From: Perna viridis
Lineage: Eukaryota
Assembly: GCA_037379345.1 (NCBI GenBank)
Contig: CM074512.1
Location: forward strand, 48,815,597-48,879,596
Direction: 5' to 3'
Length of the DNA: 64,000 nt
In this document: positions 4,918-52,460 of the stretch, one piece after another
Numbering within the stretch: the stretch's first letter is position 1
Layout: each line of letters starts with the position of its first letter
Program-made: the position numbers and the translations under genes
Notes under the pieces: generated by a model
The model's database searches: none
What the model was told of the DNA's origin: nothing
What the model saw: the letters and a program-made list of their open reading frames with translations, nothing else

Positions 4918-5327
4918 TCAAATCTTATATCCTGAAAATACTGAAGCAGATGCTGATCCCCACATAGCATCTAAATAAAAACCTTCATTGCTGTAAACTT
5001 TCAGGCTGATTTTTTCTCCTGCTTTCATTTTAACAACAACGGTTGACGAGCCTGTCATGCTATCGCCGACAGCATCATTGTCGACAACGTTTGCAGCAAT
5101 CATCTCCGAATCCTTAACAATGGCAGAAGTGAAATCCTTCCTCTCCTTCGAGAGGATTGTCCATGAAAAAACATACAGTCCGTCCTCCATGGCCGTGAAC
5201 TTCCCACTTGTGCCACTGTAGCATCCACCGACGTTCAGTTTTACATCATCAAAGACAATAACTGTATCGTGAGGAAGGTTTGTTTTGTCAGTTGTTATTC
5301 CGGCGAAAAATGCACACTTTTCATTGT
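4918..5327 (-). CDS. C1q-domain-containing protein, last exon (globular C1q domain)
   Basis: AFFA..., VIVFDDVKLNVGGCYSGTSGKFTA...GLYVFSW and SVFSGYKI motifs. Acceptor CTTTTTCTTGTAG, phase 1. AATAAA downstream at ~4815-4820. Confidence 0.9.
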
Positions 5328-5628
5328 CTACAAGAAAAAGCATGAATATTTTGAAAGGTAATCGTATAGAGAAGCGTCGATTTTAAATCCGCTAATGCAG
5401 GTTACCTTGCGTAGTTCGGGGAAGAATTGTTTGCTAAAACACCGTATATACCGTAAGACTAAAGGAATGGCATCATTTACAAATTTATACATATATTTTG
5501 TTAATTCATCGATATAATCACCGAGTTTTACATTGATAATTATTCGGCGTTGTATTATTTTTACTAACAAGAATACGCCCATTCAAGTATCATGAACATG
5601 CATGTATTGCCCCATTTATCAAGCGTAC

Positions 5629-10945: not shown

Positions 10946-11423
10946 TGTTGCATATGAACATCAAACTACTAACATCCGTCTTTATTGACAATTATCTATA
11001 TCTCTATAATTTGATGAAAAGATCACGACAAATTACGACAAATTACTTTTGTCAAATTTATTTTGAATTATAAATTTTAACATACGTATTTATGCAGCCA
11101 GTACAAGTATGGATACATATTGTTCGAGGGGTTCATATCCTTTGTTGCCGTTATGTTTCGAAATCCAGTGAAACTTGTCTAACCAGAACACTGAATCGTA
11201 CACAATCCCTTCTTGATCAGAAATCAGTTATCAGTTTTTTTTTTATAAAAATCAGACAAAAGGCGATTCATGTATATGTCAAAAACCAACCAACTTTATT
11301 TTAATTTTTATTCAGAAACACAAACAGACAACATAACCATTAATGGTGTGTCATTTGGTAGTTTGCACTTTTGAGACATTGTATGTATTGTAGGGACTGG
11401 TCCTTATTTCTTTACATTATAGA

Positions 11424-11503
11424 CGGGGGATAGCGCGAACGCAGTCCCCCACACTAAAAAATTGCGTACCCGAGTTGCCCACATTTGGGGCAATCGCAGG
11501 CTT
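11424..11503 (-). pseudogene. U1: U1 snRNA 3' fragment (nt 85-164), disrupted by truncated retrotransposon
   Basis: Identical to array U1; nt 51-84 missing. Confidence 0.9.
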
Positions 11504-12908
11504 TTTTTTTTCTTCTCCGAGATGCAAAAATTTAAATGTTTAGACAATAGAGCAATTAACTGTTTAAAACAGTTAACAGTGAAAATTATACTAACAACAC
11601 AATAGGAAATAGAGCACACTCGACAATGACATGTGAGTATATTTTTAGTGTTAATAAAACGTTCTATCAAACAATGAACAGAAAATATTTGAGGCTCTAA
11701 GCATTTAACACTGAACAGAAATAAGCTAAATGAAACACATCTTGTCACGTATAAAATGAAAACGGCAAATATAGAAAGTGAAAAATTACCAATAACACAT
11801 AATAATATACGATAATACAAAATAATAAACGAAAAGAGAAAAATACACCAATAGGTTGAGTAGTCCATGAACAGAAAGGCTATCAAAACAGGGGGGATAG
11901 AATAGTACTCATTGTCCATAATCATTCCGTTTCATTGTCGTTTAACTAACATCAACAGCTGTGTCCTCCGTGTTCTCCGGGGCTGTTATCAAAGAAGGGA
12001 GGAAAGGCTTCATTTCCATTTCCTCCAAATCATCACTACCACCATAATCATTGCACTCCGCCGCTCTTCGCTTCTTGGTTACAGACTCCTCTGTACCATG
12101 CCTCATCCCGCGCTTGTCTTGCGGGGAAGCCATACTCTCCTTCTCCTTCTCTTGCCCCCTCCCGCGCTTGTCTTGCGGGGGGCCCATACCTTCTTTATCC
12201 TGCCCCCTCCCGCGCTTGTCTTGCGGGGGGCCCATACTCTCTTTCTCCTGCCTCCTCCCGCGCCGGTCTTGCTGGGAAACCACATTCACCTCCTGCTCAT
12301 CTGAAACTCTTGCTGCAGCAGCATATGAGGGTTTTCCTTTACTTGGGCAGGTAGCCCTCTGATGACCCACCTCATTACATTTTAGACATAATGAGGGTCT
12401 CCCTCTCATGGTTACAAGTATCCGCCTTCCAGCAACAGTCACCTTGTACGGTACCTTATGAATATCAGAATCTGGCATTTCAACCAGATAATTAATGACA
12501 CCATTTTTTAACTTGGTGCCATCAATCACAGTGTCCTCAAAATCTTTCTTAATGATTTTTCCATAATTTTGTAGGAAATTGTCCACATAACAACTCTTCA
12601 TATGTAGAGGATACCAATGTATTCTAATGGCAACTTGTCTCTTATCTAAACGCTCGAAATGGTATAGACTTCCACCTGGAGCCTCAAAAGTTTGTCCCGT
12701 GCCCAAAGCATCAACTGTATCAGTGGAACTCAACCCAAGATACCAATCTCCACCCTCATCGCACTTATAAATAGCTGTAATCAATGAAGGATTAATGGTT
12801 CCTTTCAGCGCCTCAAGTACTTGTCCTCTGGTATTAAACCACTTTTTCCCAAAATTGACCTTCAGTGTTTTACTCACTGCGTCAGCATCCAAATACTCCA
12901 TTTTGATT
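11504..12908 (-). mobile_element. 3'-truncated type A Tx1-like element (ORF1 plus part of the inter-ORF region) with short poly(A)
   Basis: Matches 29002-30398 with a few substitutions; A10 tail (11502-11511, first 2 nt shared with U1); no ORF2. Confidence 0.92.
11942..12901 (-). CDS. Tx1-like ORF1 protein type A (319 aa, CCHC zinc knuckle)
   Basis: ATG in AAAATGG context; CLKCNEVGHQRATC knuckle; PSYAAAA motif; PPQDKRGRG repeats. Confidence 0.85.
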   Translation of the reverse strand: MEYLDADAVSKTLKVNFGKKWFNTRGQVLEALKGTINPSLITAIYKCDEGGDWYLGLSSTDTVDALGTGQTFEAPGGSLYHFERLDKRQVAIRIHWYPLHMKSCYVDNFLQNYGKIIKKDFEDTVIDGTKLKNGVINYLVEMPDSDIHKVPYKVTVAGRRILVTMRGRPSLCLKCNEVGHQRATCPSKGKPSYAAAARVSDEQEVNVVSQQDRRGRRQEKESMGPPQDKRGRGQDKEGMGPPQDKRGRGQEKEKESMASPQDKRGMRHGTEESVTKKRRAAECNDYGGSDDLEEMEMKPFLPSLITAPENTEDTAVDVS

Positions 12909-12958
12909 CTGGGGGAACCGCCTTTGTGATCACGGTATCCCCTGTACCAGGTAAGTAT
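12909..12958 (-). pseudogene. U1: U1 snRNA 5' fragment (nt 1-50) fused to retrotransposon
   Basis: ATACTTACCTGG...GGTTCCCCCAG followed by element sequence. Confidence 0.92.
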
Positions 12959-24795: not shown

Positions 24796-25195
24796 TTTTT
24801 TTTTTTAATTTCAAAAATTTATTCAGTAAAACTTCATACGTAATACATGACAATAAATTAAAACATAAATATCACAGATAATACATTGTGCATGTATACA
24901 GATATGAATAATGTATGCATAAATATCAACTTTGTTATTGGTTAATGCAAGAAAGAACATTGGGATAAATAGTTATATCTCAAATCAATACATGATACAT
25001 AGGTATATAATACCTTCTGACACAACAAAACACCTGAAGAGAAAAAAATTCAAATGCCCTGTTATTATAGTACTCCTGTAAATTACAAGACGCCACCCTC
25101 CCATTAACTCAAATAGGGAAAAAATACAAAAATTAAAACTTAAGGGTACCTTAATAGAATCAAGTTAATAAACCTATTACTTCAAGACTTATAAC

Positions 25196-28100
25196 TCAGA
25201 AAAAAGTGATTTCTAAATCATCATCTTGTACTTTACAGAGTAAGTCACTTGAGCACCAAAACTCAGTGAACTTTAGTATTGGAAATCTATAAAAGTCAGC
25301 TTCAATACGTAATTTCAGCTGCTGTAAATAGAAAATATAAATATCATTTGGTAAAACATGTTTACCATCAAACTTTTTACTATTTCTTTTAATCCATACA
25401 GTTTTACAATATAAAGAAATCAACAATAATACCACACTTTTAGTTCTTCCAACAACATTAATATCTCTAAAAAGTATATGTTTATAATCTAAGGAAATAC
25501 TTCCATTAGATAAAGAGAATATCCAATTCTTAATAAGAACAAATAAGTTTTTGACATCCCTACATTCGCAAAATAAATGAATTAAAGTTTCCGGTTCTCT
25601 GGCACAAAAAGTACATCTATTAGACTTATACACATTATGATTAAATAATAAACTATTAGTAGGCAAAACATTATGCACTACTTTATAAATAACATCTCTA
25701 GAAAAGCGATCAATAAACTTATCAAATACATTTTTAAATACAATTCTAAAATCCACTCCAGGATTTTTTTCAACAACTTTAGGAACATAAATTTCCTTTT
25801 CTAATAGAACCTTATACAAAACTTTTGTAGTTACACCCCTTAGATCTACATCACTACACAATTTTAAATCAATTAAAGCATCAATACAACATCTATAAAA
25901 GGACGAAATGACCTCACTGTGAGGCATGTATAAAGATGTAAACAATTCATTATAAAATCGTAAAGAATAACCAGCCCAGTATATCGCATAATTGACAAAC
26001 TTTACCTGTCTATTGTTAATAATATCGGACAAGTGTTTCAAGCGTAACGCTTTTAACTTTAAATCGATATTCACAATATTCAAACCACCCTGACTTAAAT
26101 CTAAATATAAATTCTTACGACTAATCATTTCTACCTTATCATTCCATATAAACTTAAAAATACAACGTTGGAATTTAATTATCCAATGTTTAGACATCGG
26201 CACAACAGTACCTACATACCACAACTTAGATAAAGCACACGTATTTACAATAATTGATTTTTCTAATAAAGATAAACTTCTCAACCTCCATAATTTCAAG
26301 GTCTTTTCTAACTTAATAAAAATGGGATGCCATACATCATCCTGTGACAAATCATTACCACACTTAATACCTATTAATTTCATACTATCAACAAAATTTA
26401 TACCAAATCTATGATTTTCTTTTCTACATTTCCAAGCACCTAACCACATACCTTTTGTTTTATTTTTATTAAGCTTGGAACCTGAACCTTTACCAAATAA
26501 ATCAATCCAATATAAAAATTTATGTATACTTTTATCAGTAGTAACAATACCAGTACTATCATCGGCAAAAACAGATATTTTACAATTATCAACAGAACCA
26601 GGAATATTCATACCAATAATATCAGTATCGTTCACAACTTTACGAACAAAAGGTTCAAGACATAAAACATATAATAAAGGTGACAAACTACACCCTTGTT
26701 TGACAGATCTAGTGATCCGCACAGGGTCAGAAATAAAATTATTCACAATAACTGATGAAGACAAATCATGATATAAAATCTTGATCCATTTAATTAAATT
26801 CGGACCAAAATTAAATTTTTCTAAAACATTGAATAAAAAGGTATGATTAATACGATCAAATGCTTTCTCTTGATCAAGAGAAATGAAAGCACAATTAATA
26901 TTCTTCTGATTAACATAGTCAATAATGTTCCTATGTAAATGGGCATTGTCTAAAATACTTCTGCCCCTAACAGCACAAGTTTGATCAACACCAATAATTT
27001 TATCAGAAACTAAACCCATTCTATTACAAATAATTTTACTTAAAATCTTAACATCAATATTAATTAAACTAATAGGACGATAACATTTAACATCAAAATG
27101 TCTAGAAACATCTTTACAAATAAGAGATATATAACTTGTTCTTTGACTAACTGACAAAGTATTTTCATCAAAAATATTATCATACAAATTTAATAACAAA
27201 GGTGCAAAAATGTCAATAAATTTGACATAAAATTCTTTGGGCAGTCCATCAGGCCCCGGTGATTTATTGTTATCCATACCTTTAACAGAGTTAATAATTT
27301 CATCCTCAGTAATATTAGATTCACAAATATCTCTATCATCATTATCTAACATAGGTAAATCATCTAAGAAATATTTCATAACATCAAAATCAATAGCTTC
27401 CTCTTTAAATAAATCACTATAAAAGTTTTCAAATTGCTTAATAATATCGCAATGTTTTGTAAAAATACCATCATCATTTCTAATTTCACAAATATTTTTC
27501 TTTTTTCCTCTACGAACTTCCTTTTGGAAAAAATATTGACTCGGAAGTTCACTATTATCTAGTAAATTTGCTTTACTTCTAATTTGAGCACCTCTAAAAT
27601 CTTTAACATAATAATCTTTAATCTCATTCTTAAGTACATCAATTTGTTCTGAAAAATTACCTGGCGTTTTCTTTTCTAATTTACATAAATGAAAATATCG
27701 TTTCTCTAATTGTCTAATTACAGTATACTTAAGTTTATTTTTCTTTTTACAATAATCAATACAAAAGACCTTAATATTTTCTTTAAAATAATCCCACATA
27801 TCAATACACATATCTAAACCATCGATAAAGTTAATAAACCACTCTCGAAAAGAAATACAAAAAGCTCTATCGTCTAATATAGAGGTGTTTAATTTCCAAT
27901 AACCTTCACCTCTCTTTACATCAGTGTTATTTACAAACGATACATAAACACAATCATGATCAGAAAAAGCAAAAGGTAGAACGTCACAATTCTTAACAAA
28001 AGGTTTTAATTCACTAGAAAAGTACATGCAATCTAATCGACACGCAATATTATTACCCCGCCAGGTGACACATTTACAATTAGGATATAAATACCTATAA

Positions 28101-28696
28101 ACGTCACAAAGGTCAAAATCAGATACAATGGTTCTTAATTTGTCAACACCTGTAGTACCTAAATGGGGATTTCCCCCGATCTTATCAAGTTTTGGATCCA
28201 TAATACAATTAAAATCACCACCAAATATTTTACAATTCTGTGTCATTAGAAAAGGATATATATACTCAAAGAATTCTTTTCTATCACTACTATCATTAGG
28301 TGCATAAATATTAAACAATCTATACGGAACATTATCAATTTTAACATCAATAAATTGAAAACGTCCGTCTATATCTCTATGATATTTAACTACAACAAAA
28401 TCTATAGAATGAGAAATAAAAATAGCTGTTCCCCTACTTAAATTAGAACCGAAGTTCCAAAAACATCTATACATATGTAAGTATTTATCTAAAATCTTAC
28501 TTACTTTAGAATTCGAAACATGAGTTTCTTGTAAAAATAATATATCTATATATTTACGCAAACAAAATTGCTTCAATACATACTGACATTTCACATCTAA
28601 TAATCCATTAATATTCAAAGTAGCACAATTGATTATGTTTTCTTTTTCAGATAAAGTCGTAATAATATTGATAATTAAGAACGGTATATAACTCAA
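25196..28696 (-). CDS. ORF2: AP-like endonuclease, reverse transcriptase and C-terminal zinc finger (Tx1/L1 type); frame opens at TTG
   Basis: NINGL, LQETH, NIYAPN, GGDFN, SDHD; KSPGPDG, YRPISL, DQEKAFD, QGCSLSP, FADD; CTFC..ETLIHLFCEC. Confidence 0.95.
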   Translation of the reverse strand: MSYIPFLIINIITTLSEKENIINCATLNINGLLDVKCQYVLKQFCLRKYIDILFLQETHVSNSKVSKILDKYLHMYRCFWNFGSNLSRGTAIFISHSIDFVVVKYHRDIDGRFQFIDVKIDNVPYRLFNIYAPNDSSDRKEFFEYIYPFLMTQNCKIFGGDFNCIMDPKLDKIGGNPHLGTTGVDKLRTIVSDFDLCDVYRYLYPNCKCVTWRGNNIACRLDCMYFSSELKPFVKNCDVLPFAFSDHDCVYVSFVNNTDVKRGEGYWKLNTSILDDRAFCISFREWFINFIDGLDMCIDMWDYFKENIKVFCIDYCKKKNKLKYTVIRQLEKRYFHLCKLEKKTPGNFSEQIDVLKNEIKDYYVKDFRGAQIRSKANLLDNSELPSQYFFQKEVRRGKKKNICEIRNDDGIFTKHCDIIKQFENFYSDLFKEEAIDFDVMKYFLDDLPMLDNDDRDICESNITEDEIINSVKGMDNNKSPGPDGLPKEFYVKFIDIFAPLLLNLYDNIFDENTLSVSQRTSYISLICKDVSRHFDVKCYRPISLINIDVKILSKIICNRMGLVSDKIIGVDQTCAVRGRSILDNAHLHRNIIDYVNQKNINCAFISLDQEKAFDRINHTFLFNVLEKFNFGPNLIKWIKILYHDLSSSVIVNNFISDPVRITRSVKQGCSLSPLLYVLCLEPFVRKVVNDTDIIGMNIPGSVDNCKISVFADDSTGIVTTDKSIHKFLYWIDLFGKGSGSKLNKNKTKGMWLGAWKCRKENHRFGINFVDSMKLIGIKCGNDLSQDDVWHPIFIKLEKTLKLWRLRSLSLLEKSIIVNTCALSKLWYVGTVVPMSKHWIIKFQRCIFKFIWNDKVEMISRKNLYLDLSQGGLNIVNIDLKLKALRLKHLSDIINNRQVKFVNYAIYWAGYSLRFYNELFTSLYMPHSEVISSFYRCCIDALIDLKLCSDVDLRGVTTKVLYKVLLEKEIYVPKVVEKNPGVDFRIVFKNVFDKFIDRFSRDVIYKVVHNVLPTNSLLFNHNVYKSNRCTFCAREPETLIHLFCECRDVKNLFVLIKNWIFSLSNGSISLDYKHILFRDINVVGRTKSVVLLLISLYCKTVWIKRNSKKFDGKHVLPNDIYIFYLQQLKLRIEADFYRFPILKFTEFWCSSDLLCKVQDDDLEITFF

Positions 28697-29415
28697 AACG
28701 AATTAGCCAAATTATAATTACAGGTAACTTGCAAGAAATTAAATGTCTGGTTAGGGAAAAGAACAAAGAAACTAATTGCACTGTAAAAATCTAAATGTCC
28801 AAACAAAAGACAAAACACAGTAGATTTAAAAAATCTTTTGAAAATGCAACAGTATTTCAAACGGTCACAATGAAAGAATATGTAACGAAATTTTATCGTC
28901 TGCAAACAAAGATAAATTACAGGTAAGTTATAAACATTATGATAAGAAAAGTTTAAATACCTAAAGGAAGAAAATTGTTCAAGGTGAACTGATACAATAG
29001 ACTTCTCCGACATGCAAAAATTTAAATGTTTAGACAATAGAGCAATTAACTGTTTAAAACAGTTAACAGTGAAAATGATACTAACAAAACAATAGAAAAT
29101 AAAGCACACTCGACAATGACATGTGAGTATATTTTTAGTGTTAATAAAACGTTCTATCAAACAATGAACAGAAAATATTTGAGGCTCTAAGCATTTAACA
29201 CTGAACAGAAATAAGCTAAATGAAACACATCTTGTCACGTATAAAATGAAAACGGCAAATATAGAAAGTGAAAAATTACCAATAACACATAATAATATAC
29301 GATAATACAAAATAATAAACGAAAAGAGAAAAATACACCAATAGGTTGAGTAGTCCATGAACAGAAAGGCTATCAAAACAGGGGGGATAGAATAGTACTC
29401 ATTGTCCATAATCAT
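28693..29415 (-). CDS. Putative third ORF (240 aa, very hydrophobic) between ORF1 and ORF2
   Basis: ATG 16 nt after the ORF1 stop; fills the whole inter-ORF region; its TGA overlaps the ORF2 TTG. Confidence 0.45.
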   Translation of the reverse strand: MIMDNEYYSIPPVLIAFLFMDYSTYWCIFLFSFIILYYRILLCVIGNFSLSIFAVFILYVTRCVSFSLFLFSVKCLEPQIFSVHCLIERFINTKNILTCHCRVCFIFYCFVSIIFTVNCFKQLIALLSKHLNFCMSEKSIVSVHLEQFSSFRYLNFSYHNVYNLPVIYLCLQTIKFRYIFFHCDRLKYCCIFKRFFKSTVFCLLFGHLDFYSAISFFVLFPNQTFNFLQVTCNYNLANSF

Positions 29416-29431
29416 TCCGTTTCATTGTCGT

Positions 29432-30391
29432 TTAACTAACATCAACAGCTGTGTCCTCCGTGTTCTCCGGGGCTGTTATCAAAGAAGGGAGGAAAGGCTT
29501 CATTTCCATTTCCTCCAAATCATCACTACCACCATAATCATTGCACTCCGCCGCTCTTCGCTTCTTGGTTACAGACTCCTCTGTACCATGCCTCATCCCG
29601 CGCTTGTCTTGCGGGGAAGCCATACTCTCCTTCTCCTTCTCTTGCCCCCTCCCGCGCTTGTCTTGCGGGGGGCCCATACCTTCTTTATCCTGCCCCCTCC
29701 CGCGCTTGTCTTGCGGGGGGCCCATACTCTCTTTCTCCTGCCTCCTCCCGCGCTGGTCTTGCTGGGAAACCACATTCACCTCCTGCTCATCTGAAACTCT
29801 TGCTGCAGCAGCATATGAGGGTTTTCCTTTACTTGGGCAGGTAGCCCTCTGATGACCCACCTCATTACATTTTAGACATAATGAGGGTCTCCCTCTCATG
29901 GTTACAAGTATCCGCCTTCCAGCAACAGTCACCTTGTACGGTACCTTATGAACATCAGAATCTGGCATTTCAACCAGATAATTAATGACACCATTTTTTA
30001 ACTTGGTGCCATCAATCACAGTGTCCTCAAAATCTTTCTTAATGATTTTTCCATAATTTTGTAGGAAATTGTCCACATAACAACTCTTCATATGTAGAGG
30101 ATACCAATGTATTCTAATGGCAACTTGTCTCTTATCTAAACGCTCGAAATGGTATAGACTTCCACCTGGAGCCTCAAAAGTTTGTCCCGTGCCCAAAGCA
30201 TCAACTGTATCAGTGGAACTCAACCCAAGATACCAATCTCCACCCTCATCGCACTTATAAATAGCTGTAATCAATGAAGGATTAATGGTTCCTTTCAGCG
30301 CCTCAAGTACTTGTCCTCTGGTATTAAACCACTTTTTCCCAAAATTGACCTTCAGTGTTTTACTCACTGCGTCAGCATCCAAATACTCCAT
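29432..30391 (-). CDS. Tx1-like ORF1 protein type A (319 aa)
   Basis: CCHC knuckle CLKCNEVGHQRATC; ATG 7 nt inside the element. Confidence 0.88.
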   Translation of the reverse strand: MEYLDADAVSKTLKVNFGKKWFNTRGQVLEALKGTINPSLITAIYKCDEGGDWYLGLSSTDTVDALGTGQTFEAPGGSLYHFERLDKRQVAIRIHWYPLHMKSCYVDNFLQNYGKIIKKDFEDTVIDGTKLKNGVINYLVEMPDSDVHKVPYKVTVAGRRILVTMRGRPSLCLKCNEVGHQRATCPSKGKPSYAAAARVSDEQEVNVVSQQDQRGRRQEKESMGPPQDKRGRGQDKEGMGPPQDKRGRGQEKEKESMASPQDKRGMRHGTEESVTKKRRAAECNDYGGSDDLEEMEMKPFLPSLITAPENTEDTAVDVS

Positions 30392-30398
30392 TTTGATT

Positions 30399-30448
30399 CT
30401 GGGGGAACCGCCTTTGTGATCACGGTATCCCCTGTACCAGGTAAGTAT
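30399..30448 (-). pseudogene. U1: U1 snRNA 5' fragment (nt 1-50) fused to element
   Basis: Direct match. Confidence 0.92.
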
Positions 30449-37610: not shown

Positions 37611-40600
37611 TCAGAAAAAAGTGATTTCTAAATCATCATCTTGTACTTTACAGAGTAAGTCACTTGAGCACCAAAACTCAGTGAACTTTAGTATTGGAAA
37701 TCTATAAAAGTCAGCTTCAATACGTAATTTCAGCTGCTGTAAATAGAAAATATAAATATCATTTGGTAAAACATGTTTACCATCAAACTTTTTACTATTT
37801 CTTTTAATCCATACAGTTTTACAATATAAAGAAATCAACAATAATACCACACTTTTAGTTCTTCCAACAACATTAATATCTCTAAAAAGTATATGTTTAT
37901 AATCTAAGGAAATACTTCCATTAGATAAAGAGAATATCCAATTCTTAATAAGAACAAATAAATTTTTGACATCCCTACATTCGCAAAATAAATGAATTAA
38001 AGTTTCCGGTTCTCTGGCACAAAAAGTACATCTATTAGACTTATACACATTATGATTAAATAATAAACTATTAGTAGGCAAAACATTATGCACTACTTTA
38101 TAAATAACATCTCTAGAAAAGCGATCAAGAAACTTATCAAATACATTTTTAAATACAATTCTAAAATCCACTCCAGGATTTTTTTCAACAACTTTAGGAA
38201 CATAAATTTCCTTTTCTAATAGAACCTTATACAAAACTTTTGTAGTTACACCCCTTAGATCTACATCACTACACAATTTTAAATCAATTAAAGCATCAAT
38301 ACAACATCTATAAAAGGACGAAATGACCTCACTGTGAGGCATGTTTAAAGATGTAAACAATTCATTATAAAATCGTAAAGAATAACCAGCCCAGTATATC
38401 GCATAATTGACAAACTTTACCTGTCTATTGTTAATAATATCGGACAAGTGTTTCAAGCGTAACGCTTTTAACTTTAAATCGATATTCACAATATTCAAAC
38501 CACCCTGACTAAAATCTAAATATAAATTCTTACGACTAATCATTTCTACCTTATCATTCCATATAAACTTAAAAATACAACGTTGGAATTTAATTATCCA
38601 ATGTTTAGACATCGGCACAACAGTACCTACATACCACAACTTAGATAAAGCACACGTATTTACAATAATTGATTTTTCTAATAAAGATAAACTTCTCAAC
38701 CTCCATAATTTCAAGGTCTTTTCTAACTTAATAAAAATGGGATGCCATACATCATCCTGTGACAAATCATTACCACACTTAATACCTATTAATTTCATAC
38801 TATCAACAAAATTTATACCAAATCTATGATTTTCTTTTCTACATTTCCAAGCACCTAACCACATACCTTTTGTTTTATTTTTATTAAGCTTGGAACCTGA
38901 ACCTTTACCAAATAAATCAATCCAATATAAAAATTTATGTATACTTTTATCAGTAGTAACAATACCAGCACTATCATCGGCAAAAACAGATATTTTACAA
39001 TTATCAACAGAACCAGGAATATTCATACCAATAATATCAGTATCGTTCACAACTTTGCGCACAAAAGGTTCAAGACATAAAACATATAATAAAGGTGACA
39101 AACTACACCCTTGTTTGACAGATCTAGTGATCCGTACAGGATCAGAAATAAAATTATTCACAATAACTGATGAAGACAAATCATGATATAAAATCTTGAT
39201 CCATTTAATTAAATTCGGACCAAAATTAAATTTTTCTAAAACATTGAATAAAAAGGTATGATTAATACGATCAAATGCTTTCTCTTGATCAAGAGAAATG
39301 AAAGCACAATTAATATTCTTCTGATTAACATAGTCAATAATGTTCCTATGTAAATGGGCATTGTCTAAAATACTTCTGCCCCTAACAGCACAAGTTTGAT
39401 CAACACCAATAATTTTATCAGAAACTAAACCCATTCTATTACAAATAATTTTACTTAAAATCTTAACATCAATATTAATTAAACTAATAGGACGATAACA
39501 TTTAACATCAAAATGTCTAGAAACGTCTTTACAAATAAGAGATATATAACTTGTTCTTTGACTAACTGACAAAGTATTTTCATCAAAAATATTATCATAC
39601 AAATTTAATAACAAAGGTGCAAAAATGTCAATAAATTTGACATAAAATTCTTTGGGCAGTCCATCAGGTCCCGGTGATTTATTGTTATCCATACCTTTAA
39701 CAGAGTTAATAATTTCATCCTCAGTAATATTTGATTCACAAACATCTCTATCATCATTATCTAACATAGGTAAATCATCTAAGAAATATTTCATAACATC
39801 AAAATCAATAGCTTCCTCTTTAAATAAATCACTATAAAAGTTTTCAAATTGCTTAATAATATCGCAATGTTTTGTAAAAATACCATCATCATTTCTAATT
39901 TCACAAATATTTTTCTTTTTACCTCTACGAACTTCCTTTTGGAAAAAATATTGACTCGGAAGTTCACTATTATCTAGTAAATTTGCTTTACTTCTAATTT
40001 GAGCACCTCTAAAATCTTTAACATAATAATCTTTAATCTCATTCTTAAGTACATCAATTTGTTCTGAAAAATTACCTGGCATTTTCTTTTCTAATTTACA
40101 TAAATGAAAATATCGTTTCTCTAATTGTCTAATCACTGTATACTTAAGTTTATTTTTCTTTTTACAATAATCAATACAAAAGACCTTAATATTTTCTTTA
40201 AAATAATCCCACATATCAATACACATATCTAAACCATCGATAAAGTTAATAAACCACTCTCGAAAAGAAATACAAAAAGCTCTATCGTCTAATATAGAGG
40301 TGTTTAATTTCCAATAACCTTCACCTCTCTTCACATCAGTGTTATTGGCAAACGATATATGAACACAATCATGATCAGAAAAAGCAAAAGGTAGAACGTC
40401 ACAATTCTTAACAAAAGGTTTTAATTCATTAGAAAAGTACATGCGATCTAATCGACACGCAATATTATTACCCCGCCAGGTGACACATTTACAATTAGGA
40501 TATAAATACCTATAAACGTCACAAAGGTCAAAATCAGATACAATGGTTCTTAATTTATCAACACCTGTAGTACCTAAATGGGGATTTCCCCCGATCTTAT

Positions 40601-41069
40601 CAAGTTTTGGATCCATAATACAATTAAAATCACCACCAAATATTTTACAATTCTGTGTCATTAGAAAAGGATATATATACTCAAAGAAATCTTTTCTATC
40701 ACTACTATCATTAGGAGCATAAATATTAAACAATCTATACGGAACATTATCAATTTTAACATCAATAAATTGAAAACGTCCGTCTATATCTCTATGATAT
40801 TTCACTACAACAAAATCTATAGAATGAGAAATAAAAATAGCTGTTCCCCTACTTAAATTAGAACCGAAGTTCCAAAAACATCTATATAATTCAAAATAAG
40901 TATTTAAGTCATTACTTATAATGGAGTTTGAAACATGCGTTTCTTGCAAAAACAAAATATCTACATGTTTACGCAAACAAAAATCTCTTAGTGCGTACTG
41001 ACACTTTACATCAAGTAACCCATTACAATTCAAAGTTGCAATATTCAATAAATTATCAATGTTTGTCAC
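37611..41069 (-). CDS. ORF2 (APE endonuclease-RT-zinc finger), type B; no ATG, first near-cognate start GTG
   Basis: Same motifs as type A; CRLDRMY. Confidence 0.95.
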   Translation of the reverse strand: MTNIDNLLNIATLNCNGLLDVKCQYALRDFCLRKHVDILFLQETHVSNSIISNDLNTYFELYRCFWNFGSNLSRGTAIFISHSIDFVVVKYHRDIDGRFQFIDVKIDNVPYRLFNIYAPNDSSDRKDFFEYIYPFLMTQNCKIFGGDFNCIMDPKLDKIGGNPHLGTTGVDKLRTIVSDFDLCDVYRYLYPNCKCVTWRGNNIACRLDRMYFSNELKPFVKNCDVLPFAFSDHDCVHISFANNTDVKRGEGYWKLNTSILDDRAFCISFREWFINFIDGLDMCIDMWDYFKENIKVFCIDYCKKKNKLKYTVIRQLEKRYFHLCKLEKKMPGNFSEQIDVLKNEIKDYYVKDFRGAQIRSKANLLDNSELPSQYFFQKEVRRGKKKNICEIRNDDGIFTKHCDIIKQFENFYSDLFKEEAIDFDVMKYFLDDLPMLDNDDRDVCESNITEDEIINSVKGMDNNKSPGPDGLPKEFYVKFIDIFAPLLLNLYDNIFDENTLSVSQRTSYISLICKDVSRHFDVKCYRPISLINIDVKILSKIICNRMGLVSDKIIGVDQTCAVRGRSILDNAHLHRNIIDYVNQKNINCAFISLDQEKAFDRINHTFLFNVLEKFNFGPNLIKWIKILYHDLSSSVIVNNFISDPVRITRSVKQGCSLSPLLYVLCLEPFVRKVVNDTDIIGMNIPGSVDNCKISVFADDSAGIVTTDKSIHKFLYWIDLFGKGSGSKLNKNKTKGMWLGAWKCRKENHRFGINFVDSMKLIGIKCGNDLSQDDVWHPIFIKLEKTLKLWRLRSLSLLEKSIIVNTCALSKLWYVGTVVPMSKHWIIKFQRCIFKFIWNDKVEMISRKNLYLDFSQGGLNIVNIDLKLKALRLKHLSDIINNRQVKFVNYAIYWAGYSLRFYNELFTSLNMPHSEVISSFYRCCIDALIDLKLCSDVDLRGVTTKVLYKVLLEKEIYVPKVVEKNPGVDFRIVFKNVFDKFLDRFSRDVIYKVVHNVLPTNSLLFNHNVYKSNRCTFCAREPETLIHLFCECRDVKNLFVLIKNWIFSLSNGSISLDYKHILFRDINVVGRTKSVVLLLISLYCKTVWIKRNSKKFDGKHVLPNDIYIFYLQQLKLRIEADFYRFPILKFTEFWCSSDLLCKVQDDDLEITFF

Positions 41070-41201
41070 GATGTGTATATAGAGTATTTACAACTGAAAC
41101 AACATAAACAAAATACCTTAAAAATTATCAAGGTATTTCAAAAAGTATTTAGAAAATAACTCAATGAAGAAAATTTAAATATCTGACTAATTACAATCAT
41201 G

Positions 41202-41636
41202 CTAATTACAGGTGAAGAATACAAATTTCAACAGGTAAGATATCGGTAGAAATTTAAATGACCAAACAAAAGCAAAAATCTTTAAATGCCCAGACAATAG
41301 AAGAAACGTTAACATCTGGATAATTACAATCAAAAATTTCAGTGCATTAAAGGTAACAAACGGAAAGGTGAAAATCAAAGATGAGTTTAAATCTCTTAGC
41401 AATAGAGAAGTAAAACTATCGTAAAATCTAATCACCAGCCAATTAACACTATAGAAAAAGTGAACTGTAAAAAGTAAAAAGAATAAAAGAGTTACTAAAC
41501 ATATTAATACAAGTAATAGATTACTATTACAAAAACTGGTTTTAAACCCAAAAAAATAAACATTAAACAGATTGCAAGCAATCCGAGATAAATAAACAAT
41601 CGAAATCAAAATCGTTAATCTAAATTCAAAGTCCAT
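41202..41636 (-). CDS. Putative third ORF type B (144 aa, hydrophobic)
   Basis: ATG 47 nt after the ORF1 stop; C-terminal LLLSGHL..TCN resembles type A LLFGHL..TCN. Confidence 0.4.
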   Translation of the reverse strand: MDFEFRLTILISIVYLSRIACNLFNVYFFGFKTSFCNSNLLLVLICLVTLLFFLLFTVHFFYSVNWLVIRFYDSFTSLLLRDLNSSLIFTFPFVTFNALKFLIVIIQMLTFLLLSGHLKIFAFVWSFKFLPISYLLKFVFFTCN

Positions 41637-41683
41637 GGGCGTATTCAGTCAGTTTAGGGGGATTATAACTATACCAAAGTCCA

Positions 41684-42655
41684 TTAACAGTCCGCGTCTA
41701 CATCAATTGCTTCCTCTTCAGGGTTTCTCATTCCCGGTGGAATTAAAAGTGGCCTCTCTAAAGCTTCTTTCTTCACCCTCTTCTCAACGTCTGGTTGTTC
41801 CTTGTTGTCATCTCTGGCTCTTTTAGCATCAGTACCTCGGTCCCTGGAGTAGGAACCTTCACTGCTATATTCAGTACCTCGGCCCTCCTCCACGGGACCT
41901 TCACTGCCGGTTGATACATCAGTGCCCGATCGGGCACCTTCATCACTAGTCGGTACATCGGATCCCTGGGTGGATCCTTCACCGCTGGTTGGTACATCAG
42001 ACCCCTCCTGGGATCCTTCACCACTCGTTGTTGACTCGGTGCTCGGCTGAGCACTTTCATCGCGTCTAGGTCGCCGACTAGTCGCCGCTGCCTTGCCACA
42101 TTTGGCTCTCACATGACCAAATTCTCCACACTTAAGGCATTGAGCTTGCCTTCCTGCAACGGTAATCAAGACATCCCTACCATAAATTTTAGCTCGGTAT
42201 GGCAAACTGCTATATTGACTGTCGGTTGAATACATTTTCCCAGAAACTACACCAGTTTTATACGTAACCTCTTCGAAGGTGTCAGTATCATGCCTCAGTG
42301 CAACCTCACTTCCGTATTTTCTTAGTCCCTCTTTCAACAGGTCTAGTTTTAAGTGCATTGGGAACCAATGCACTTTAAAACGAACTAAACGCCTATCTAT
42401 CCGGCTAAAGAAGAGTGGAACTCCTTTCGCCTGGAAAGACCGCTCCATCGTAAGCCTCTCTACTGTGAGTGGGTGTTTGAAGGAAACAAACCAGTCACCA
42501 TCTTCACCACACTTGTAGACGGCGTCTATCTCGTCACCATTGACTACTTCCTTCAAATATGGTATAACTTCACGTTGAGTAAACAATCTCTTCTTCAAAC
42601 CAATTGCCAACCGGAGAGTCCTACCGGACACACTTCCATCTACATAGTGGTCCAT
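41684..42655 (-). CDS. Tx1-like ORF1 protein type B (323 aa)
   Basis: CLKCGEFGHVRAKC knuckle; VYKCGEDGDWF and VHWFPMH homologous to type A; EGS..GSDVPTS repeats. Confidence 0.88.
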   Translation of the reverse strand: MDHYVDGSVSGRTLRLAIGLKKRLFTQREVIPYLKEVVNGDEIDAVYKCGEDGDWFVSFKHPLTVERLTMERSFQAKGVPLFFSRIDRRLVRFKVHWFPMHLKLDLLKEGLRKYGSEVALRHDTDTFEEVTYKTGVVSGKMYSTDSQYSSLPYRAKIYGRDVLITVAGRQAQCLKCGEFGHVRAKCGKAAATSRRPRRDESAQPSTESTTSGEGSQEGSDVPTSGEGSTQGSDVPTSDEGARSGTDVSTGSEGPVEEGRGTEYSSEGSYSRDRGTDAKRARDDNKEQPDVEKRVKKEALERPLLIPPGMRNPEEEAIDVDADC

Positions 42656-42709
42656 TCTGGTAAATAAGGGATTCCTCACGGAATACACCTTATGTATGAG
42701 TACAGAGGA

Positions 42710-42764
42710 TCGACCTGGGGGAACCGCCTTTGTGATCACGGTATCCCCTGTACCAGGTAAGTAT
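42710..42764 (-). pseudogene. U1: U1 snRNA 5' fragment (nt 1-55) fused to element
   Basis: Direct match. Confidence 0.92.
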
Positions 42765-51200: not shown

Positions 51201-51741
51201 TACCTAAATGGGGATTTCCCCCGATCTTATCAAGTTTTGGATCCATAATACAATTAAAATCACCACCAAATATTTTACAATTCTGTGTCATTAGAAAAGG
51301 ATATATATACTCAAAGAATTCTTTTCTATCACTACTATCATTAGGTGCATAAATATTAAACAATCTATACGGAACATTATCAATTTTAACATCAATAAAT
51401 TGAAAACGTCCGTCTATATCTCTATGATATTTAACTACAACAAAATCTATAGAATGAGAAATAAAAATAGCTGTTCCCCTACTTAAATTAGAACCGAAGT
51501 TCCAAAAACATCTATACATATGTAAGTATTTATCTAAAATCTTACTTACTTTAGAATTCGAAACATGAGTTTCTTGTAAAAATAATATATCTATATATTT
51601 ACGCAAACAAAATTGCTTCAATACATACTGACATTTCACATCTAATAATCCATTAATATTCAAAGTAGCACAATTGATTATGTTTTCTTTTTCAGATAAA
51701 GTCGTAATAATATTGATAATTAAGAACGGTATATAACTCAA
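48241..51741 (-). CDS. ORF2 (APE endonuclease-RT-zinc finger), type A
   Basis: Same protein as 25196-28696. Confidence 0.95.
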   Translation of the reverse strand: MSYIPFLIINIITTLSEKENIINCATLNINGLLDVKCQYVLKQFCLRKYIDILFLQETHVSNSKVSKILDKYLHMYRCFWNFGSNLSRGTAIFISHSIDFVVVKYHRDIDGRFQFIDVKIDNVPYRLFNIYAPNDSSDRKEFFEYIYPFLMTQNCKIFGGDFNCIMDPKLDKIGGNPHLGTTGVDKLRTIVSDFDLCDVYRYLYPNCKCVTWRGNNIACRLDCMYFSSELKPFVKNCDVLPFAFSDHDCVYVSFVNNTDVKRGEGYWKLNTSILDDRAFCISFREWFINFIDGLDMCIDMWDYFKENIKVFCIDYCKKKNKLKYTVIRQLEKRYFHLCKLEKKTPGNFSEQIDVLKNEIKDYYVKDFRGAQIRSKANLLDNSELPSQYFFQKEVRRGKKKNICEIRNDDGIFTKHCDIIKQFENFYSDLFKEEAIDFDVMKYFLDDLPMLDNDDRDICESNITEDEIINSVKGMDNNKSPGPDGLPKEFYVKFIDIFAPLLLNLYDNIFDENTLSVSQRTSYISLICKDVSRHFDVKCYRPISLINIDVKILSKIICNRMGLVSDKIIGVDQTCAVRGRSILDNAHLHRNIIDYVNQKNINCAFISLDQEKAFDRINHTFLFNVLEKFNFGPNLIKWIKILYHDLSSSVIVNNFISDPVRITRSVKQGCSLSPLLYVLCLEPFVRKVVNDTDIIGMNIPGSVDNCKISVFADDSTGIVTTDKSIHKFLYWIDLFGKGSGSKLNKNKTKGMWLGAWKCRKENHRFGINFVDSMKLIGIKCGNDLSQDDVWHPIFIKLEKTLKLWRLRSLSLLEKSIIVNTCALSKLWYVGTVVPMSKHWIIKFQRCIFKFIWNDKVEMISRKNLYLDLSQGGLNIVNIDLKLKALRLKHLSDIINNRQVKFVNYAIYWAGYSLRFYNELFTSLYMPHSEVISSFYRCCIDALIDLKLCSDVDLRGVTTKVLYKVLLEKEIYVPKVVEKNPGVDFRIVFKNVFDKFIDRFSRDVIYKVVHNVLPTNSLLFNHNVYKSNRCTFCAREPETLIHLFCECRDVKNLFVLIKNWIFSLSNGSISLDYKHILFRDINVVGRTKSVVLLLISLYCKTVWIKRNSKKFDGKHVLPNDIYIFYLQQLKLRIEADFYRFPILKFTEFWCSSDLLCKVQDDDLEITFF

Positions 51742-52460
51742 AACGAATTAGCCAAATTATAATTACAGGTAACTTGCAAGAAATTAAATGTCTGGTTAGG
51801 GAAAAGAACAAAGAAACTAATTGCACTGTAAAAATCTAAATGTCCAAACAAAAGACAAAACACAGTAGATTTAAAAAATCTTTTGAAAATGCAACAGTAT
51901 TTCAAACGGTCACAATGAAAGAATATGTAACGAAATTTTATCGTCTGCAAACAAAGATAAATTACAGGTAAGTTATAAACATTATGATAAGAAAAGTTTA
52001 AATACCTAAAGGAAGAAAATTGTTCAAGGTGAACTGATACAATAGACTTCTCCGACATGCAAAAATTTAAATGTTTAGACAATAGAGCAATTAACTGTTT
52101 AAAACAGTTAACAGTGAAAATGATACTAACAAAACAATAGAAAATAAAGCACACTCGACAATGACATGTGAGTATATTTTTAGTGTTAATAAAACGTTCT
52201 ATCAAACAATGAACAGAAAATATTTGAGGCTCTAAGCATTTAACACTGAACAGAAATAAGCTAAATGAAACACATCTTGTCACGTATAAAATGAAAACGG
52301 CAAATATAGAAAGTGAAAAATTACCAATAACACATAATAATATACGATAATACAAAATAATAAACGAAAAGAGAAAAATACACCAATAGGTTGAGTAGTC
52401 CATGAACAGAAAGGCTATCAAAACAGGGGGGATAGAATAGTTCTCATTGTCCATAATCAT
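51738..52460 (-). CDS. Putative third ORF (240 aa, hydrophobic)
   Basis: As 28693-29415, with one Y>N difference. Confidence 0.45.
   Translation of the reverse strand: MIMDNENYSIPPVLIAFLFMDYSTYWCIFLFSFIILYYRILLCVIGNFSLSIFAVFILYVTRCVSFSLFLFSVKCLEPQIFSVHCLIERFINTKNILTCHCRVCFIFYCFVSIIFTVNCFKQLIALLSKHLNFCMSEKSIVSVHLEQFSSFRYLNFSYHNVYNLPVIYLCLQTIKFRYIFFHCDRLKYCCIFKRFFKSTVFCLLFGHLDFYSAISFFVLFPNQTFNFLQVTCNYNLANSF

Follow-up and report, generated by a model that had tools for sequence, protein, structure and literature searches.

The window analysed here, a 64,000-nt stretch of Perna viridis DNA, is a tandem array of U1 snRNA genes (minus strand) and 7SL RNA genes (plus strand) with a unit of ~1.7 kb; from 12900 to 64000 the array is mixed, with the two genes on opposite strands and a CA microsatellite in each unit. 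Four non-LTR elements, all in U1 genes and all in sense orientation, were recognised: two full copies of type A, one copy of type B and one ORF1-only copy of type A, and we refer to these U1-targeting window elements as U1A (type A) and U1B (type B). A ~17.5-kb block carrying one type A element is present twice in the window, which also contains a broken transposase-like gene (1025-2742, weak DUF4371 and zf-C17orf113 matches) and a C1q-domain exon (4918-5343).

The type A element described here lies on the minus strand and starts at 30398, directly after nt 50 of U1 (U1 nt 1-50, 30399..30448). Only 7 nt of element sequence precede the ORF1 start at 30391, and transcription from the U1 promoter is therefore likely. 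Because the element begins at 30398 and ORF1 at 30391, the 388-aa ORF1 called earlier was too long; ORF1 (29432..30391) encodes 319 aa with one CCHC zinc knuckle (C-x2-C-x4-H-x4-C) read in the sequence, and its Pfam matches fell below the cut-off. An 8-codon ORF in the ORF1 frame (29399..29425, minus strand) begins 6 nt past the ORF1 stop and ends with a UGA over the start of the 240-codon frame described below; its last three codons are also the last three of ORF1 in L047, a U1-targeting relative from another organism. ORF2 (25196..28696, minus strand) encodes an APE endonuclease (PF03372), a reverse transcriptase (PF00078) and a zf-RVT domain (PF13966), and its first AUG, at 28474, lies inside the endonuclease. 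The 3'UTR (24796..25195, minus strand) contains AATAAA and a poly-A tail and is followed by U1 from nt 40, giving an 11-bp target duplication; within it, at 25040-25095, a variant form of the CATTTAAAT motif lies next to a short palindrome complementary to CCTGTAA in the spacer.

The type B element, also on the minus strand, has an ORF1 of 323 aa (41684..42655) with ~30-35% identity to that of type A, an 11-codon ORF (41649..41684) whose AUG overlaps the ORF1 stop (UAAUG), two successive spacer frames, leg 1 (41202..41636, 144 codons, in the frame of the 11-codon ORF) and leg 2 (41066..41200, its AUG 1 nt past the leg-1 stop), and an ORF2 (37611..41069) that is 99.1% identical to that of type A beyond the first 200 nt compared. 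Between 37611-42710 and 25196-30398, the two types share ORF2 and differ in ORF1, the spacer and those first 200 nt; such swapping of the 5' module recurs, since the U2 and U5 families likewise have two 5' variants. In the ORF1-only copy (11500-12910), an A-run is joined to the 3' half of U1 and part of U1 is missing, which would reflect either a deletion or the insertion in trans of an RNA that was polyadenylated prematurely. A short recurring insertion interrupts many decayed copies of these elements (L021-L028). An ORF2 with APE, reverse transcriptase and a C-terminal zinc-binding domain, multicopy snRNA targets (U1, with U2, U4 and U5 in sister families), a poly-A tail and target duplications of 11 and 16 bp are Tx1-type traits; we describe the elements as Tx1-like LINEs, a label based on these domain and target features and on the call of the first-pass annotation, our tree having been built from elements other than the named Tx1 ones.

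Open frames in the spacers of long-spacer elements

The spacer of type A contains a 240-codon ATG-initiated frame on the minus strand (28693..29415). As the first-pass annotation had reported, its ATG lies 16 nt after the ORF1 stop and its stop overlaps the ORF2 frame, falling within the 10 nt with which the ORF2 open frame begins (28702-28693). Its length was reached by none of 5,000 dinucleotide shuffles and none of 5,000 second-order Markov samples, and ORF length in the equally U-rich 3'UTR, used as a control, was at chance (955/5,000). The annotation had read the frame as either an accessory membrane protein or a 'ribosome bridge' delivering ribosomes to ORF2; for brevity we call it the bridge frame.

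The further claim, that substitutions have left the frame open in each of the three type A copies, did not hold up. The three-copy argument is weak because two copies (28693..29415 and 51738..52460, both on the minus strand and within the duplicated block) differ by one base and the third stops at codon 138: the frame of the ORF1-only copy (11404-11925) retains a 3'-truncated bridge (11512..11925, minus strand) and takes its last 35 residues from the A-run, U1 and flank. An additional full type A copy, on contig C9, has an open frame with six differences, all six non-synonymous, and the type A frame lacks codon-position bias.

In type B, the 144-codon frame that had been noted is beyond chance (0/5,000 shuffles for ATG-initiated and 3/5,000 for stop-to-stop frames), but the C-terminus said to resemble that of type A is not significantly similar (blastp E 7.7); the apparent likeness arises because two nucleotide motifs are read in different frames. 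Leg 1 ends 115 nt short of the ORF2 start, and leg 2, which follows on, has 44 codons in the C9 copy and in one run contig, where it ends with a UGA over an ORF2-frame GUG (GUGA). In the window copy, leg 2 is interrupted by a stop at its codon 21 (41138-41140), and in the C9 copy leg 1 is frameshifted, both legs being open only in the run contig and all legs together in none of the type B copies of this assembly. The AUG upstream of the type B ORF2 (41105) meets a stop at codon 6.

Relatives were sought in the same genome by endonuclease search, with 150 of 459 candidates scored and 36 stretches read, and in a metagenome set of 60 loci, of which the 31 with enough upstream DNA were read. Close sister families in the same genome target U2 (with two 5' variants, U2v1 and U2v2), U4 and U5, and have spanning frames of 205, 219, 149 and 166 codons, respectively; one genome accordingly holds sister families for the U1, U2, U4 and U5 genes (L011-L017, L018-L019, L024), and the U1-targeting L047 comes from elsewhere. 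A distant family, L043 (29% identity), has a 469-codon frame; five of the family's 12 copies keep this frame whole (455-479 codons), and all 12 have a broken ORF2. Among the 31 metagenome loci, bridges were found in two, L047 (172 codons) and L048 from another organism (two chained frames of 229 and 241 codons), and in most of the rest ORF1 and ORF2 abut or are decayed. All nine long-spacer elements (U1A, U1B, U2v1, U2v2, U4, U5, L047, L043 and L048) hold an open frame of 142-469 codons inside the spacer, and in each the observed length within the spacer proper was reached by 0-2 of 2,000 shuffles; in U1B and L048 the spacer is covered by chained frames rather than by a single one. A tree of 19 ORF2s, which did not include U5 and U1B, places the long-spacer elements in two clades (support 100/100 and 98/97) and the abutting families outside both.

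Six spacer-less families (L031-L036) have abutting ORF1 and ORF2. By contrast, no frame spans the ~700-nt spacer in two L1-like families, that of L046 (none of five copies) and that of L037. They keep only frames of 42 and 89 codons (seen at L116-L120 and L108-L111) whose terminal UAAUG lies on the start of ORF2, and all but one of their copies are decayed or truncated. The spacers of the decayed copies L042 and L045 contain no frame of at least 95 codons. No relative was found in the viral contigs searched, and the prokaryote genomes searched gave bacterial endonucleases only (17 loci, unused).

Evidence of expression is thin: ~19% of one raw RNA run gave 11 reads on the element. The RNA depth listed is all first-mate-plus, which in most stranded libraries is the element's sense strand, with no joints listed. 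Contigs from runs only guessed to be RNA cross both junctions unspliced and were not counted as expression. Removal of the spacer by splicing was considered and rejected, as no such joint occurs in the RNA reads and contigs at their thin coverage and, by eye, no usable 3' splice site precedes the ORF2 frame.

Selection on the frame and character of its peptide

The bridges of U2v1 and U2v2, compared over 135 codons after removal of the first 12 and the identical last 42, have a dN/dS of 0.75 (CI 0.43-1.4; neutral simulation median 0.78), and those of U5 and its truncated copy U5b 0.85 (0.46-1.75) over 65 codons, compared with 0.18 for ORF1 and 0.25-0.26 for ORF2; these are the two informative pairs, both with wide intervals, the U4 pair being identical and the distant-family pair having nine differences only. 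The frames stayed open through 73 substitutions in the U2 pair and 64 in the U5 pair, for which the neutral odds are 0.07-0.09 and 0.04-0.07, or ~0.004 for both pairs jointly, and the sole internal indel in the bridge pairs is 12 nt long. Neutral-like dN/dS together with the absence of stops argues that openness is selected and the sequence barely. The frame is a real and selected feature of this Tx1-like lineage.

The hydrophobic look of the type A frame, previously taken as a sign of a membrane protein, comes about because the strand is 46% U: 95.6% of 500 shuffles are equally or more hydrophobic and the other two frames score higher, which bears out the accompanying caveat that a U-rich strand by itself yields hydrophobic translations. 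Kyte-Doolittle windows revealed no hydrophobic segments beyond compositional expectation. Between families, the bridge peptides show no similarity (best E 0.26 in an 11-sequence database), protein searches using the bridge as query returned only near-identical alleles of the same families (one match among 230 candidates and five in a representative library), a Pfam scan of 10 bridge peptides produced no match, and an Atlas search (best score 0.84, recognition 778) provided a lead at most.

A fast-evolving hydrophobic peptide might nevertheless matter by its character, either as a nascent chain tethering the element RNA to the ER in cis or as a small accessory membrane protein. Small membrane proteins of viruses evolve rapidly, and the changes between U2v1 and U2v2 preserve hydropathy better than neutral ones (P 0.002-0.009, an effect confined to the bridge frame among the three frames), with 15 of the 73 falling at codon position 2; each snRNA-clade frame has 1-3 hydrophobic windows, and the frames of U1A, L047 and L048 start with the same few residues. 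We nonetheless consider a role of this kind unlikely because hydrophobicity is at or below that of shuffles, the L048 frames are not hydrophobic, hydropathy conservation was not found in U5/U5b, similarity does not extend between families, a single-sequence AlphaFold model is uninformative on fold (pLDDT 51, pTM 0.34), and such a peptide leaves the position of the stops on the ORF2 start unexplained. Of the two functions first proposed, the accessory membrane protein is mostly unsupported, and the ribosome bridge is supported by the open frames in nine elements, the stop at the ORF2 start and the near-neutral amino acids. Hydropathy conservation in one of two pairs keeps a weak role for the peptide alive.

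RNA motifs and junctions

The type A spacer contains a nucleotide module (28720..28800, minus strand) with RRCATTTA(A)AT-like sequences at -103 and -51 and TYACCTK at -32 from the bridge stop, and further copies at 29029 and 28926. Both motifs were defined after seeing the data. Depending on the frame, motif 1 (RRCATTTAAAT-like) translates as HLNF or AFKC and motif 2 (TYACCTK) as TC or LPV. Across the snRNA clade, a copy of motif 1 lies 78-121 nt and motif 2 11-98 nt upstream of the bridge stop; TYACCTK is enriched over shuffles in six of seven spacers (P up to 0.03), L043 and L048 having no copy, and the RRCATTTAAAT-like motif is not significantly enriched in most single spacers. This position suggests a restart signal, and the conservation of nucleotide motifs in the spacer would suggest a job for the RNA itself. 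Copies of TYACCTK cluster before ORF2, at 28926, 28727, 41238 and 41215 in the window and also in L011, L018, L024 and L047. The motif resembles the 5' end of U1 and would correspond to a strong splice donor on the antisense strand.

Pairing with the host 18S rRNA was sought for these regions. Near helix 26, placed where we presume it to lie in the host 18S, no 6-mer has a complement in at least five of six junction regions, and the UGGGA core of TURBS was not found in these junctions. Pairing of the motif itself with 18S was not accepted: the TYCACCT and TTTACCT forms match host 18S positions 913 and 1797, but the CTYACCT forms do not. At the other end, the bridges have a repeat containing GGAC as a 5' landmark; it folds only to a 4-bp stem, without compensatory change. 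The 14 nt from the second AUG of the type A bridge (29396..29409, minus strand) are identical to those at the first bridge AUG of L048 (L048:1402-1415), which belongs to the other clade.

These motifs could also belong to a different arrangement, in which translation of the spacer protects the RNA (from nonsense-mediated decay or U-rich decay elements) or unfolds it, while ORF2 has an initiation mechanism of its own, such as an IRES located in the motif module. That arrangement would likewise predict frames that stay open as their amino acids change neutrally, the module lies directly upstream of ORF2, and in silico prediction places IRESs in most long vertebrate L1 spacers (PMC5381506). However, the RNA continues for over 3.5 kb past the bridge stop, a stretch in which decay signals would presumably persist; elongating ribosomes would pass through the IRES; no Rfam IRES family, including the dicistrovirus-type IGR IRES, matched at gathering score in the window or the sister loci; and the NUGA overlap would not be needed. 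We regard protection with separate initiation as quite improbable.

The bridge stop and the ORF2 start lie close together in different configurations: AUGA (an overlap) in U2, AUGAGUGA in U4, a stop 25 nt after the AUG in U5, UAA-C-AUG in L047 and AUG-5 nt-UGA in L043, such that the stop-start distance is at most 25 nt in all five junctions with an AUG. A NUG overlap occurs in U1A (UUGA) and in leg 2 of U1B (GUGA), a NUGA pattern that was noticed after the fact. In U1A, the UUGA (28693..28696, minus strand) places the bridge stop over an ORF2-frame UUG, a predicted non-AUG restart site whose position matches that of the L047 AUG, the UUG lying 21 codons and the AUG 20 codons before a conserved motif; in all four type A copies, which share the same 1168-codon ORF2 frame, no AUG precedes the endonuclease. 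L048 has its stop just before the endonuclease and no AUG until residue 151. The ORF1-side junction is loose, with the first bridge AUG placed anywhere between 56 nt upstream and ~62 nt downstream of the ORF1 stop: U1B and U4 show overlaps, four elements have AUGs up to 56 nt upstream of the stop, and four have them 16-62 nt downstream of it.

If ribosomes entered ORF2 from the bridge (and ORF1) by frameshifting or readthrough, giving a fusion protein, the three ORF2s without an AUG at the junction would be explained; the final bridge frame and the ORF2 open frame share 10-65 nt, and in U2v1 the bridge is in frame with ORF1 past one stop. The frame of ORF2 relative to the bridge is -1 in three cases and +1 in five, however, and therefore no single frameshift fits and stop-restart fits better than programmed frameshifting; by eye there is no common slippery site, and for most ORF2s the junction itself provides an AUG. 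A fusion thus appears very unlikely. It is scarcely credible that the frame arose by chance on a U-rich strand, although such strands do lengthen ORFs and make them hydrophobic, or that it is a relic without present role; this reading has been largely refuted already by the shuffles, the 3'UTR control, the sister families (nine of nine elements) and the joint neutral odds.

A probable ribosome bridge and known systems

We conclude that the frame is probably a ribosome bridge, by which ribosomes would cross the spacer and restart on ORF2. Ribosomes leaving ORF1 would restart on the bridge frame, traverse the U-rich spacer by translating it, terminate atop the ORF2 start and restart there (termination-reinitiation); ORF2 would then begin at UUG in type A and at GUG in type B, the upstream motifs may help to hold the ribosome, and the bridge peptide would be largely a by-product. 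The open frames, the stop positions, the near-neutral dN/dS and the motifs 11-121 nt upstream of the stop are direct observations, and from these sequence features we infer that the bridge frame is translated and that ORF2 is made by termination-reinitiation.

Keno, a Tx1-clade site-specific non-LTR retrotransposon of U2 snRNA genes, is alike in its APE-RT-zinc ORF2, knuckle ORF1, poly-A tail and sense insertion in multicopy snRNA genes (PMC4494074). It differs in that the elements here target U1, with U2, U4 and U5 sisters in one genome, and have a long open third frame and an AUG-less ORF2, none of which is mentioned for Keno in the portion of that report consulted (PMC4494074). The window elements, in U1, lack the U2 insertion of the Keno family; the sisters L011-L015 are in U2, a correspondence with Keno that holds for the target gene.

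Coupling of the ORF2 start to an upstream stop is known from SART1, which uses UAAUG (PMC5972666), and ORF2 termination-reinitiation has been proposed for human L1 (reviewed in PMC5972666 and PMC3894237). In those elements, however, ORF1 itself lies upstream across a gap of 0-63 nt, whereas here a separate frame of 140-470 codons extends over 440-1470 nt and would need at least two restarts. Stop-restart in LINEs is therefore not new, and what these sequences appear to add is a variant with a long spanning bridge frame. Calicivirus reinitiation tolerates non-AUG restart codons, and the TURBS of caliciviruses and influenza B virus resemble the present junctions in stop-start overlap, non-AUG tolerance and conserved motifs upstream of the stop (PMC5972666), but here neither a UGGGA core nor helix-26 pairing was found and the upstream ORF has no conserved product. 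Vertebrate L1 elements with long inter-ORF regions are alike in having spacers of several hundred nucleotides, T-rich in fish, for which IRES and reinitiation are debated (PMC5381506, PMC4072516); in the megabat L1, with a 445-nt spacer, spacer AUGs help, their removal having lowered retrotransposition ~3.3-fold (PMC4072516). In the open-access literature searched, which excludes Repbase Reports, we found no report of a long frame selected only to stay open.

A broader proposition, to which we assign slightly less than an even chance, is that LINEs of at least two clades use sequence-agnostic bridge ORFs that are selected only for openness, with 2-4 stop-restart steps, NUGA-type junctions (AUG, UUG, GUG) and an undescribed upstream RNA signal. 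ORF2 translation across long spacers is a stated puzzle, for which an IRES is the favoured guess (PMC5381506, PMC4072516, PMC3894237) and reinitiation was called improbable by one review (PMC3894237). There is a warning here for annotation: a U-rich strand may retain a long hydrophobic ORF for the sake of being translated rather than for a protein, and the start of the type A ORF2 would be misplaced by 74 codons. The elements offer a testable alternative to an IRES, together with natural variants in the form of AUG, UUG and GUG junctions, one- and two-leg bridges and broken alleles. If the ribosome bridge is real, these elements would contain a coding frame whose product is ribosome transit, which would answer how ORF2 arises across spacers of hundreds of bases.
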